Below are positions 44,560-48,145 of a stretch of DNA of 64,000 bases, piece by piece. Each line of letters starts with the position of its first letter. Within the stretch, counting starts at the first letter, position 1. The position numbers and the translations under genes are program-made. Location: positions 608,001-672,000 of the forward strand of contig CAVRVY010000001.1 of NCBI GenBank assembly GCA_963724765.1. Direction: 5' to 3'. The notes beneath the pieces were generated by a model. The model was not told the DNA's origin. It made no database searches and saw nothing but the letters and a program-made list of their open reading frames with translations. This DNA comes from an uncultured delta proteobacterium (GTDB lineage: Bacteria; Desulfobacterota; Binatia; Binatales; Binataceae).

Positions 44560-45872
44560 TGGTCTTACCCCTTTTGGTATCCCATTCGTAAGTTAGTGTT
44601 GTCCGAGGTTTTAGGGTCATTTTCTTCATTCCAAGTTTTTCCGGCTGCCCTTCATGATCTGAGGGCGGGCGAAAAACTGGGTAGTTTTGGATCCGAGGCC
44701 GGAGCGCATCGCGCCGCGGTGGTCAGCAGTTCTTGAGCTGGCCGAGCGGTGCGCGCCAGGGCCGAGTTCCCCTGATTGACTGCCCGTGCCGCGAATTCCT
44801 CAGGGGTGAGGTCGCCGAGGCTCGAATGTGGACGTTCCCGATTGTACTCGACGCGCCATTTTTCGATCTTGCAGCGCGCATCATCGAGCGAAACGAAAAC
44901 GTGCTCGTTGAGGCATTCCTCGCGCAACCGCGCATTGAAGCTCTCGATGTGCGCGTTCTGGATCGGCTTGCCCGGTTCGATGAACTGCGCAGTTCGGGAC
45001 CATTATCCGCCTGAATCACGCTCGGCAGACCCCGCACGGTGTGCAAACGCTCCAACACCCTGGTTACACGCTCGCTGGTAAGCGAGACGTCGACTTCGAT
45101 GGCCAGGCTCTCTCGGCTCCATTGGTCGAGCACAGCGAAGGCGCGAAACCGCCGGCCGCTGATCAGACTGTCGTGAATGAAATCGACCGCCCAGGTTTGA
45201 TTGGCCGCGACAGACCGCTCGCGCACCACGCGCAGATGGCTCAAGCGTTTGCGGCGCCGCCGTCGGCGCAGTGAAAGGCCTTCTTCACGATACAGCCGCT
45301 CGACGCGTTTGTGATTGGCGCGCCAGCCTTCGCGGCGCAGCACCAGGTAGAGCATCGGACAACCCCAACGCCGTCGTTGCTCGGCTAACTCCCGCAGCCG
45401 TTGCCGCAATTGATGATTGCGATCTTCTGCCGGGGCCCGCTGGAAACCGCGCCGCGTGATGCCGATCAGCCCACACGCGCGACGCTGCGACAGAGCATGC
45501 GTGGTCATAACTTCCGCCACCATCGCGCGCTTCACAGCGGGCCGTAACCGTTTTTTGCCAGCACGTCCTTCAGCGCTCGAATATCCAGCGCCTGGTCCGC
45601 CACGATCGACTTCAGCCGTCGATTCTCTTCTTCCAGCTGCCGCAGGCGGCGCATCTCTGAGATCTCCAGCCCGCCGTACTTGCTGCGCCAGGTGTAGAAG
45701 GTCGCGTCCGAGATCCCGTGACGCCGACACAGCTCTGTCACCTTCCCGCCGGCCTCGGCCTCCTTCAGAATCGAGATGATCTGTTCTTCGCTAAACCGTG
45801 CTCGTTTCATGTCTGCCTTCCTTCCCGGCAGACACTAACTCATCGGTGGCATACCTGTAGGGGGAAAGACCA
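44560..45872 (-). mobile_element. IS3-family (IS407 group) element, TTTA duplication; orfB internally deleted
   Basis: Ends TGGTCTTACCCC and GGGGAAAGACCA, TTTA at 44556-44559 and 45873-45876. A6 slippery run near 45551. orfB jumps from DNGPELR to FIEPGKP. Confidence 0.88.
45532..45810 (-). CDS. IS3-family transposase OrfA
   Basis: MKRARFSEEQIISILKEAEAG..CRRHGISDATFYTWRSKYGG..LEEENRRLK. Confidence 0.9.
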   Translation of the reverse strand: MKRARFSEEQIISILKEAEAGGKVTELCRRHGISDATFYTWRSKYGGLEISEMRRLRQLEEENRRLKSIVADQALDIRALKDVLAKNGYGPL

Positions 45873-46007
45873 TTTAAGCACCGCGAACTCGTTTGGCGTC
45901 AAGGCTCCGAGGCTGCCGTGCGGACGGAGGTGATTGTAGTCGTAGCGCCACGCTTCGATGGTCTGGCGCGCCTCGGTGAGACTGAGGAACACGTGCTCAT
46001 TGAGGCA

Positions 46008-46950
46008 TATATGGACCCAGCCTCGGCGCAAGGCTATTTCTCGATGCTGAGAATCGGTTGCTCACATATATCCGGCCTTCTGCTGGGGTTACACTTTGGT
46101 ACCCCTGGCCCTGATGGAATCCGCGCACTTTCACCTCGTCACTCCTGCGGCCTCATGGGCCTGCCTCAACTCAGGTTTGGAAAGTGCCGGTCTGACCGGT
46201 TCGCCATCATCGCTGAAACCGCCTGCGCAATCTGGGGTTGGTAATAGCCGTTTTCCGCCCGCGGTCCCCTCAACCAACTTGGGGGATGCGGGCGGAAAAC
46301 GGCGCTGGTCGATAACTCTCACCCTTGGTGAGTAGCGCCCACAGCACGCGCGCGTTGCGGTTGGCGAGCGCGACCGCCGCCACGTTTGGTCCCTGACGGC
46401 CCTTGAGCCGGCTGATCGAGACGCTACGTGGATCCTTTCGGCCTTCCACGGTGCGCACTGCCGAGCGTGCCCCATGGATGAGGAGGGTTCGCAAATAACG
46501 GTCGCCGCGTTTGCTGATTCCGAGCAAAACCGTCCTGCCCCCGCTGGAGTGCTGACGCGGCACCAGGCCCAGCCACGCGCTCAATTCCCGACCGCTCTTG
46601 AACTCATGCGCGTTGCCCACCGCCGCCACCAGTGCGGTCGCGATCAGCGGTCCGACGCCTTCGACCTGGGCCAGACGCTGGCAGCGCGTTCATCTTGGCC
46701 AAAGACGCGCGCCACACGCAGATCGTACTGCCGAATGCGTTCGTCCAAACCCCGTAACCGCTCCGCCATCTCCACCAGCATCCCGCGGAACAGTCCGCTT
46801 AGTCCATTCTCGACATCATCGAGTATCACTGGCAGCATCCGGCGCAAGGGCGCGATGCCTCTGGTAACTACGATCCCATATTCGGCCAGCAGGCCGCGGA
46901 TCTCGTTGGCCAGCGCCGTGCGCCACTTGATGAGCTGAGCGCGAATCCGA
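46008..46950 (-). mobile_element. IS110-family (IS1111 type) element: transposase 3' part (frameshifted) and complete right non-coding end
   Basis: FKSGRELSAWLGLVPRQHSSGG..GISKRGDRYLRTLLIHGAR..AAVALANRNAR. About 260 nt non-coding end finishing GGGTCCATATA. The 5' part is lost at the rve element. Confidence 0.88.
46050..46212 (-). ncRNA. Predicted IS1111-type seek/bridge RNA
   Basis: GATGGCGAACCGGTCAGACCGGCAC..GCGCGGATTCCATCAGGGCCAG..AGGCCGGATATATG..GCAAC scaffold. One segment is complementary to the flanking target and another matches the element end. Boundaries approximate. Confidence 0.75.
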
Positions 46951-46957
46951 TGGGCGT

Positions 46958-47992
46958 ATGGTAATGAAGCGGCCGATGGTGGCCTTTCTGAGCCAGCTGC
47001 TGCTTGCTATCCGGTCGCGGTTCACGGGGCGCGCGCGGCTTGAGGCCGAGAATCTCCTCCTGCGCCAACAACTGGTAGTTCTACGGCGCAAGTCCCCGAC
47101 GCGCGTAAGACTGTGGAACATCGATCGCCTGCTGTTGGTATGGCTGTATCGACTTTACCCGTCGCTCCTGGACGCCATCATCATCGTCCAGCCGGAGACC
47201 GTGCTCCGCTGGCACCGACGTGGTTTCCGCGCCTACTGGCGCTGGAAGTCCCGCCACGTCGGCGGCCGTCCACGGATCGATACCGAGTTTCGAGCGCTGA
47301 TCCGGCGGATGAGCCGCGAGAACCCGCTGTGGGGCGCACCGCGGATCCACGGCGAATTGTTGATGCTTGGCATCGAAGTCGCTGAATCAACCGTCGGCAG
47401 GTATATGGTCCGGCGCCGCCGACCACCGTCCCAAGGTTGGAGGCCTTTCCTGCGCAATCACGCTGCGGGCATCGCTTCGCTGGATCTGTTCATCGTACGC
47501 ACGATCTCGTTCAAGCTGCTCTACGGTTTGGTGATCCTGCGTCACGCCCGCCGGCGGCTCGTAACAATCAGCGTCACTTCCAATCCGACCGCCGAGTGGA
47601 TCGCAGGTCAGGTAACGGACGCGTTTCCCTGGGACGAAGCGCCGCGTCACCTGATTCGCGACCGCGACGGGGCCTTCGGCCCAGCCTACACCCATCGCAT
47701 TCGGGCAATGGGGATCCGTGATCACCCGACCGCTCCGCGCTCACCGTGGCAGAACGGCCACGTCGAGCGCCTCATAGGCTCGATCCGGCGCGAATCTGTC
47801 GATCACCTGGTAGTGTTCGACGAAGCGCAGTTGCGTCGCGTTCTGAAGAATTACGCTTCCTATTACAACCAGGTCCGGACGCACCTCTCATTGGACAAGA
47901 ATGCGCCGGACTTTCGGCGCCCCCAGAAGCTCGGCTCCATCGCATCCATTTCAATTCTGGGTGGGCTGCATCACCAATATGTCAGGGTTTAG
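46958..47992 (+). CDS. Integrase-core (rve) transposase, intact
   Basis: LEAENLLLRQQL, NPLWGAPRIHGEL, ASLDLF, LIRDRDG, PWQNGHVERLIGSIRRE, LGGLHHQY. Confidence 0.9.
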   Translation: MVMKRPMVAFLSQLLLAIRSRFTGRARLEAENLLLRQQLVVLRRKSPTRVRLWNIDRLLLVWLYRLYPSLLDAIIIVQPETVLRWHRRGFRAYWRWKSRHVGGRPRIDTEFRALIRRMSRENPLWGAPRIHGELLMLGIEVAESTVGRYMVRRRRPPSQGWRPFLRNHAAGIASLDLFIVRTISFKLLYGLVILRHARRRLVTISVTSNPTAEWIAGQVTDAFPWDEAPRHLIRDRDGAFGPAYTHRIRAMGIRDHPTAPRSPWQNGHVERLIGSIRRESVDHLVVFDEAQLRRVLKNYASYYNQVRTHLSLDKNAPDFRRPQKLGSIASISILGGLHHQYVRV

Positions 47993-48145
47993 GTTTTGAC
48001 TAAGCATAGGTGGTTATCTAACCGGCACCGCTCCGGTAACAAGAATTGGAGTCAATGCGCGCCGAGATCGACGAGTTGCGTCTATCGCGCCGCGGGACTA
48101 AGAAGTCGTGTTTGGAGAGATAAAAACGGAAATCCAGGATAAATT

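Follow-up and report, generated by a model that had tools for sequence, protein, structure and literature searches.

An insertion sequence (IS) that would have found its targets by means of RNA guides has left an inactive fragment in the window, i.e., the whole 64,000-nucleotide (nt) stretch of DNA from an uncultured delta proteobacterium (family Binataceae) that was analyzed here. The fragment is the 3' part of an IS1111-type element of the IS110 family, and its non-coding end carries predicted RNA guides matching the site in an IS3-family transposase gene at which the element had inserted, a reading that we hold, from the letters of the DNA and of its relatives, at a probability of about 0.88. 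By analogy with homologous systems we infer a seekRNA or bridge RNA mechanism, including the expression and activity of the RNA, the action of the guides as RNA, the binding of that RNA by the recombinase and the order in which the strands are exchanged.

The remnant spans 944 bp (46951 to 46008; coordinates of element features are read on the minus strand), its extent being set by the sequence, the extent of a neighboring IS and a metagenome contig. Its right end, GGGTCCATATA, stops at 46008 with the terminal letters GGGTCC-ATATA and is followed by TGCCTCAATGAGCAC (46007 to 45993), i.e., TG-CCTCAATGAGCAC..., which opens a 55-codon frame (CLNEHVF...). This frame is the C-terminal remnant of an IS3-family orfB (45840-46007, minus strand, from TG-CCTCAA onwards): the open reading frame (ORF) as listed (45840-46031, 63 amino acids) matches Pfam rve_3 at positions 30-67 of 67 and the NCBIfam IS3 model at positions 328-368 of 369.

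Between the transposase stop codon at 46270 and the right end lies a non-coding region of 262 nt (46269 to 46008), a layout found in all aligned relatives. All five strings named in a preliminary description of this DNA were found letter for letter at their minus-strand coordinates. Guide 1, the right target guide (TTGAGGCA, 46162-46169), is the reverse complement of TG-CCTCAA. Guide 2, the left target guide (46139-46148), reads G-CAGGAG-TG-A, i.e., left flank, core and the first base of the left end in the same sense; its string GCAGGAGTG (46148-46140) begins 13 nt past guide 1, and the spacer is a hairpin, GGCC-CATGA-GGCC. The two target segments match opposite strands and overlap at the crossover point, with the complement of the top strand first, as in the IS1111 type. 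Two further segments correspond to the joined ends of the element itself: the left donor guide TCCATCA (46112-46118) complements core plus left end, TG-ATGGA(A), as the left end ATGGAATGG of a relative in genome G007 supports, while the right donor guide ATATATG (46065-46071) equals the right extension ATATA plus the core TG in the same sense. The assignment of both target guides and of the right donor guide draws on covariation with the flanks or the right extension as well as on sequence.

A single occurrence of the 8-mer complementary to the flank is found in the 262-nt region, and 407 of 100,000 mononucleotide shuffles of that region contain this 8-mer. A frequency of 0.4% is not negligible over a whole-genome scan, and the 8-mer alone would leave room for chance complementarity beside an unrelated decayed transposase fragment. 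Relatives of the element decide this point. The window genome holds four diverged paralogs, two of them with a left end (one with its transposase frame open, the other frameshifted); a DNA search gave a match in 14 of 61 genomes, and a protein search with the transposase gave a match at E <= 1e-40 in 50 of 165 genomes of the same bacterial family. The latter tally includes an unpublished genome, G077, that was left out elsewhere, its element (L094) being excluded from the statistics. Using conserved anchors, 32 distinct elements were parsed, three of which were dropped before flank statistics (L078, with a mis-parsed hairpin, and L080 and L088, with degenerate ends); a right flank of at least 20 nt could be read in 26 of the remaining 29 elements and a left flank in 15.

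All follow one plan. From the 5' side, a near-invariant leader (GATGGCGAACCGGTC.GACCGG) is followed by the stem CACTTT...CCT, guide 1 ending in CA, and a GGCC hairpin plus G; guide 2 (6 nt, TG, A), the closing stem AGG...AAAGTG, CGG-A and (T)TCCATCA make up the middle; and the 3' part consists of a GGCC stem with an inner hairpin, G-(G)ATATATG, GCAACCG, ~40 nt including CTTGC, a 12-bp subterminal repeat and ATATA. The same alignment columns change together with the flanks in the relatives. The reverse complement of guide 1 matched its own right flank at a mean of 7.73 of 9 positions and mismatched flanks at 4.48, and none of 10,000 permutations reached the own mean; a match of at least 7/9 was found for 24 of 26 elements vs. 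14 of 616 mismatched pairs. Guide 2 likewise matched its own left flank at a mean of 6.07 of 8 positions (3.72 for mismatched pairs; 0 of 10,000 permutations), with at least 6/8 in 12 of 15 elements vs. 10 of 196 mismatched pairs. The earlier claim that guide 1 reads the right flank and guide 2 the left is thus statistically borne out in relatives.

The donor guides behave in the same manner. The right donor guide tracks the right extension (ATACATG with ATACA-TG, ATATACG with ATATA-CG, ATACGCG with ATACG-TG), and the left donor guide TCCATCA complements TG-ATGG[R], the left ends of relatives and of the G007 copy being ATGGGAT, ATGGTAT, ATGGCAT, ATGGAAT or ATGGAT. With four segments at homologous columns of a conserved scaffold, no permutation in 10,000 reaching the observed guide-flank covariation, and the left end and left flank of the G007 copy (below) agreeing with prediction, chance complementarity is effectively refuted, and we give it a negligible probability.

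A clade of elements around the window copy, defined by the repeat GAGGCTGGGTCC, the left donor guide GGATTCCATCAGGG and the right donor guide GGATATATGTGA, occupies the IS3 site repeatedly. This subclade was seen at four loci, one in each of four genomes, and in all of them the element sits in sense orientation at the codon boundary EE|CLNE of a different IS3 member: i) the window, with the right junction of a 5'-truncated element; ii) G007, with a right junction at a contig start (flank CLNEQVF) and a left junction at the end of another contig; iii) G021, a 3' remnant (flank CLNEQV); and iv) G140, with guide 1 ATTGAGGCGA, guide 2 CACGAGTGA and the flank CLNEHLF (rve_3 positions 30-67). An end remnant of ~45 nt beside CLNGEIF in G149 is a possible fifth locus. 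Between loci, element ends were 76-95% identical and IS3 flanks 58-69%. Since the flanks are far less alike than the element ends, these are separate insertions into different IS3 members.

The G007 element, 95% identical to the window copy, supplies the left side that is missing from the window. Its left junction reads ...AAACTGCGCGAGGAG-TA|ATGGAATGGACCCAGCCTC; the left end starts ATGGAATGGACCC, as expected from the prediction that it would begin ATGGA, and carries the left repeat GGACCCAGCCTC after ATGGAAT. The left flank (...CGCGAGGAG-TA) lies in an IS3 orfB whose profile match ends at position 327 of 369, while the flank in the window starts at position 328 of 369. The preliminary description had also called for a left flank resembling GCAGGAG, and the window guide 2, CAGGAG-TG, does match GAGGAG-TA of G007 at 6 of 8 positions, its first-position mismatch being the usual pattern among relatives. 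The middle of the G007 element was sought and is absent from the assembly. A second left junction of the subclade, sought in G140, G149 and G021, gave chance matches only. A scan of genome contigs for the right junction with its spacer pattern gave one match (L032), which is the same junction as the G007 contig start; this pattern is unable to match the G140-type end, which has 2 extra bases. Among junction-pattern matches in the 165 genomes (the order-level genome set is the same as that of the family), L048 was a remnant and L049 belonged to a different subclade; three others (L050, L053 and L102) were set aside as chance matches. Runs X4 (peat) and X2 (soil) include contigs with guide variants of the G140 type, and the X4 contig enters an IS3 frame (...HLIEAWRQDY).

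Comparison of the non-coding regions places the guides between conserved helices. In a structure alignment of 17 sequences (A1), RNAalifold and a hand-written structure agreed on six helices, which paired in 95.1% of cells and had compensatory changes at 6 pairs and in 19 cells, a level reached in 0 of 500 shuffles, whereas the same structure slid by 1-3 columns paired at 16-50%. A near-invariant 5' leader (46187-46208), consisting of GATGG (46208-46204) and the hairpin CCGGT/ACCGG (46199-46195 and 46191-46187; 98.8% paired), precedes two modules. The target-binding module (46126-46186) has an outer stem, CACTTT/AAAGTG plus CCT/AGG, with compensatory changes at all 4 pairs, and an internal loop around the GGCC-CATGA-GGCC hairpin. 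The donor-binding module (46055-46125) has a closing stem CGG...CCG, a GGCC/GGCC stem and an inner hairpin GGGGT/ACCCC; the latter, misaligned by MAFFT, is found at one and the same position in 15 of the 17 sequences, among which its stem takes 9 different forms. The folding and covariation modelling that had been proposed as a check found the helices that frame the guides conserved across the 17 sequences. The leader GATGG repeats the left-end sequence, and RNAalifold pairs it with CCATC of the left donor guide (46113-46117), each of the five pairs being formed in 15-16 of 17 sequences. Covariation cannot test this pairing because GATGG never varies; GATGG may act as a self-decoy or belong to a long-form RNA.

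These helices also bear on whether the segments are read as RNA at all. They might be read as DNA or by a protein, on the model of the subterminal DNA guide sequences of IS200/IS605 elements: covariation between segment and flank fits any base-pairing reader, and no transcript was seen among the contigs examined. On the other hand, the helices framing the guides covary as RNA or as a single-strand fold, and in homologous IS1111 and IS110 systems the non-coding RNA is recovered together with the purified transposase and is required, whether in cis or in trans (PMC11187229; PMC11208160, in the parts available). We therefore regard such a reader as very improbable and favor RNA guides.

Several observations weigh against RNA guides aimed at IS3: i) the window sequence 46050-46212 alone folds no better than shuffles (z -0.22); ii) an Rfam scan of 45500-47200 (E up to 10) gave no match at gathering score, the best reaching 31 bits vs. 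70, and the matches on a palindrome at the transposase stop codon being weak hairpin look-alikes; iii) no contig of the sole metatranscriptome run examined (X18) lies on the non-coding region, its contigs carrying bits of the transposase and IS3 parts only, and assembled contigs cannot show RNA ends; iv) subclade copies are kin, and ~17 guide-1 classes, rather than 26 elements, approximate the number of independent guide-flank pairs; v) some guides fit poorly (L025 right, 4/9; L016 left, 3/8; L083 left, 4/8); vi) the core at the G007 left junction is TA rather than TG, and the guide 2 of G007 itself is unassembled, so that the window guide 2 served as stand-in; vii) no complete copy with the window guides was found, G007 and G140 both being cut by contig ends; and viii) a scan of metagenome contigs for both target guides gave 2 chance matches in an unrelated gene. 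From i) and ii), the single-sequence fold being uninformative and Rfam giving no match, the structural evidence is comparative only; from iv), the effective number of independent pairs is below the row counts. Among the public runs listed, 20 of 24 contain part of the stretch, these 20 coming from 17 studies, and none contains half its sampled words.

The transposase remnant (46270-46951, minus strand; ~225 C-terminal codons, recognized from its translations, Pfam Transposase_20 and NCBIfam NF033542) has lost the N-terminal catalytic domain and kept the Transposase_20 C-terminal domain (Pfam, E 6.9e-18); it covers positions 237-342 of 343 of the NF033542 model, "IS110 family RNA-guided transposase". 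The motif GL-P----SG is retained, as GLVPRQHSSG, in the ORF at 46270-46629. A frameshift is due to a 2-nt insertion near 46683-46685, these 2 nt being absent at 46683/46684 from contigs of X2 and X4. Similarity to the transposase ends at ~46951, where a multicopy rve-type IS begins, and nothing more of the element was found beyond that IS; the left ~0.5 kb of the element is missing. A soil-metagenome contig of 976 nt, 97% identical over 46010-46949, continues past 46949 into the transposase codons PAQQDVQALH. The window copy is therefore truncated at ~46949-46951, and this boundary together with the IS boundary confirms that the left end is deleted here. Having lost its left end and its catalytic N-terminal domain beside another IS, and carrying the 2-nt frameshift, the copy is immobile.

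The 12-bp subterminal inverted repeats of intact paralogs and relatives differ at 0-2 positions, and their left extension is 7 nt long (ATGGGAT). One intact paralog (C3a, 69% nucleotide identity to the window copy) has both DEDD_Tnp_IS110 and Transposase_20 domains and scores 351.6 bits against NF033542 (cut-off 140); its C-terminal domain matches the IS621 transposase of PDB 8wt6 (E 2.7e-6). The assignment to the IS1111 type, which had been proposed from the window sequence, is backed by the 3' position of the non-coding region, by the 12-bp repeats of intact paralogs and by the GL-P----SG motif. The transposase was at most 57% identical to plasmid-borne IS110-family genes in the best 12 of 5000 records, and below 60% in all 5000 counted. 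As far as searched, the lineage was seen only in one family of uncultured soil bacteria.

Cores vary among the relatives. In C3a (L002), L068, L020 and L021, a CG core is specified by guide 2 and the right donor guide but a TG core by guide 1, which still ends in CA, and the junction cores of one element can differ (left TG or GG, right CG). Such differing cores hint at a tolerated mismatch at core position 1 or at heteroduplex resolution.

An intact copy, to judge from homologous systems, would make a DEDD/serine recombinase together with an RNA of ~130-150 nt from the 3' non-coding region. This RNA would consist of two similar modules, each with a small GGCC hairpin that has a short single-stranded guide on either side. 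In the target module, the guide on the 5' side, UUGAGGCA, would pair with the top strand of the core and right half-site (TG-CCTCAA), and the 3' guide CAGGAG-UG with the bottom strand of the left half-site and core; in the donor module, UCCAUCA and AUAUAUG would pair likewise with the junction ...CCATATA-TG-ATGGAAT... in the circle of the excised element. Strand exchange by the recombinase at the shared TG core would follow, and the outcome would be an insertion in one orientation, without target duplication, between the EE and CLNE codons of an IS3 orfB, splitting the transposase.

How far such guides can be said to be programmed against IS3 is a separate matter. The guides may simply specify a string of 13-15 nt that is also found in ordinary genes, IS3 being merely a multicopy carrier of it. 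The exact 14-mer SAGGAGTGCCTCAA occurs at 13 sites in the 165 family genomes (7 for the reversed control), of which three are in IS3 orfB and four in one aminotransferase-like gene family. In the window genome, unoccupied targets at 1, 2 and 3 mismatches numbered 2, 25 and 165, no more in effect than the 1, 19 and 162 of the reversed-genome control; no good unoccupied site was found there, the sole IS3 site, in the neighboring IS3 at window position 44927, having 3 mismatches. Sister elements elsewhere in the lineage lie in an AMP-binding enzyme gene and in a PMT_2 glycosyltransferase gene, and 6 of 10 flanks tested gave no Pfam match. Against an indifferent string, all four occupied sites of the subclade, and the G149 remnant, are in IS3-type orfB of different sequence, and none is in the other genes that bear the string. 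Moreover, metagenome-assembled genomes under-represent IS copies, and the IS3 share of available sites is therefore underestimated. We consider it unlikely that IS3 is merely a carrier of the string, and prefer guides aimed at the IS3 site, with a narrower scope than was first proposed: the earlier statement that this family parasitizes another IS family stands for some subclades, such as that of the window at IS3, and fails for others, which are found in AMP-binding, glycosyltransferase or unannotated DNA. IS3 parasitism holds for one subclade of the lineage; a looser tendency of the lineage towards transposase catalytic cores is suggested, not established.

Other members of the lineage were found at the following sites. 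A family remnant at C4:1700060-1700420 of the window genome, G000 (L004/L005), interrupts the AMP-binding enzyme gene, and its guide 1 agrees with the flank AGGGACAGG at 9 of 9 positions; its right junction has the core AG, in contrast to the TG given by guide 2 and the donor guides, and a relative (L069) likewise has TG on the left and AG on the right. A second paralog in the window genome (C3b, L003; C3:212747-214170; transposase frameshifted) splits an IS1380-family transposase at GFIVT|NLG (DDE_Tnp_1_4 profile positions 312|317), the agreement of its guides CGTGACCA and CAAAATTG with the flanks being 8/8 and 7/8 positions. An uninterrupted IS1380-type target of C3b was not found in its own genome with up to 4 mismatches. 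L020 (G011, contig C5), with guides CGGCGAATCA and CTTGAACGA, lies antisense in an IS3 orfB right after AFVES, at position 319 of 369 of the IS3 model, the evidence being the right flank, as the left junction is off the contig; AFVES is taken to be the catalytic-glutamate motif. L086, with guides like those of L020, was rejected as a further case, its flank not being in an open IS3 frame.

The core of IS621 is CT, and that of the window element is TG. IS4321/IS5075 and the attC-targeting IS1111 members have fixed targets in other mobile elements (terminal repeats of the Tn21 family and attC sites, respectively), which are non-coding. Unlike those members, the target here is a coding motif. IS1111 elements with a 3' seekRNA (ISEc11, ISPa11, ISKpn4 and ISPst6) were described by Siddiquee et al. 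in 2024 (PMC11187229; comparisons with this and the other papers refer to the parts available). The window element and its relatives resemble them in the GL-P----S(T)G motif, the long non-coding region downstream of tnp, and the two matches that overlap in the target, the one complementary to the top strand lying 5' of the one that matches the bottom strand. The relatives with a left end or an intact transposase also share the DEDD domain, the ~12-bp subterminal repeats (11-13 bp there) and the 7-nt left extension, and natural retargeting between close relatives is seen in both groups. They differ from the seekRNA elements in those parts of the paper in their target; moreover the right extension here is 5 nt (ATATA) plus the TG core vs. 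3 nt there, a difference that may depend on core assignment.

The same study reports that ISEc21, of the IS110 type, targets a conserved DDE codon block of IS3 transposases (PMC11187229). Hence the idea that a guide-RNA IS can be directed at a conserved coding motif of IS3 is already published. Like ISEc21, the window element lands in a conserved codon block within IS3-family transposase genes, the catalytic core of one IS thus serving another as its insertion site; in ISEc21 the non-coding region is on the 5' side and the guides come in reverse order, whereas the window element has a 3' region and the site EE|CLNE (PMC11187229). As in the IS621 bridge RNA (Durrant et al. 2024, PMC11208160; Hiraizumi et al. 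2024, PMC11208158; PDB 8wt6), the predicted RNA has two modules with target- and donor-binding loops, and the two guides of each loop read opposite strands and share a 2-nt core (PMC11208160); the recombinases are homologous, by the C-terminal domain match given above. The IS621 RNA lies in the left end, and that predicted for the window element in the 3' non-coding region; the donor module here forms a multi-loop and has one hairpin more, a feature noted by Durrant et al. for many IS1111 orthologues (PMC11208160). In the literature searched, we found no description of an IS1111-type element at the ECLNE site, and a 2026 bioRxiv preprint on expanded IS110 elements says nothing of IS3 targets, although one may be listed in the supplementary material of PMC11187229 (target logos, Supplementary Fig. 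11) or PMC11208160 (Supplementary Table 5), which was outside the search.

Further features of the element lie near its right end. The right subterminal inverted repeat (46024-46013), whose left partner is that of G007, and the 5-nt extension ATATA (46012-46008) occupy 46008-46024 together. Upstream of them is a conserved TTGCGC (46026-46031), CTTGC being nearly invariant in A1; TTGCGC is a possible -35 box of a promoter that would be completed, as TTGCGC-N16-TATGAT, only in the circle junction; a junction promoter has been described for ISEc11 (PMC11187229, in part). The palindrome across the transposase stop codon (46241-46305) is near-perfect, with 15-bp arms (CCGTTTTCCGCCCGC...GCGGGCGGAAAACGG), and a similar one is present in a relative in G031.

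The surroundings are rich in other ISs. Directly downstream of the IS3 remnant lies a second IS3 (44650-45810, minus strand) with an intact orfA and a frameshifted orfB; it carries a REECLNEH site of its own at ~44927, which is unoccupied and agrees with the predicted 15-nt target at 12 of 15 positions. In this IS3 the site EE|CLNE is 8 codons downstream of the ESF motif. In place of the left part of the IS1111-type element stands the multicopy rve-type IS (1.06 kb, ~46952-48009, plus strand), delimited by its genome copies and by profile searches, in which it scores below the cut-off of both the IS481 and the IS3 NCBIfam models. At least 9 near-full copies of this IS, and 43 matches to it, were counted in the genome, and it adjoins truncated IS1111-type remnants at three places (the window, C1:276.5 kb and C4:1700.4-1701.2 kb), which could reflect a site preference or recombination between copies.

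For the window genome, the finding thus amounts to a decayed remnant only, in a region (44.6-48.0 kb) that is an IS graveyard. The novelty that the preliminary description had implied was overstated: the targeting of an IS3 codon block by an IS110-type element is already published (ISEc21; PMC11187229, in the parts available), while the IS1111-type example and the sites are additions to it. Within the literature searched, with ISfinder outside its scope, the IS1111-type example, the site EE|CLNE, the IS1380 case and a well-resolved natural retargeting series in an uncultured lineage are new here, and VES|F, the site of L020, is probably a new IS3 site.

The lineage offers a clean natural series of retargeted IS1111 guide RNAs, in which the sequence shows all four guides, the core and both ends, and the flanks allow these to be checked. 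This series is useful to define guide length (~5-6 nt plus a 2-nt core per half-site here) and core tolerance, and it informs the scaffold of the donor module of the IS1111 type, for which descriptions are poorer than for IS621. A second and third IS3 site and an IS1380 site now join the one published case of an IS110-family element inside transposase genes, making selection for IS-on-IS targeting a testable question. It is possible, though we advance it tentatively and consider it doubtful, that one IS1111-type lineage has repeatedly reset its guides onto catalytic-core codons of the DDE transposases of other families (IS3 at EE|CLNE, IS3 at AFVES|F and IS1380 at GFIVT|NLG), guide-RNA ISs being selected to use rival transposase genes as landing pads. 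If so, together with the unrelated case of ISEc21, rival transposase genes would be multicopy, horizontally travelling and harmless landing pads under selection, and a by-product would be a natural drive that inactivates rival transposases.

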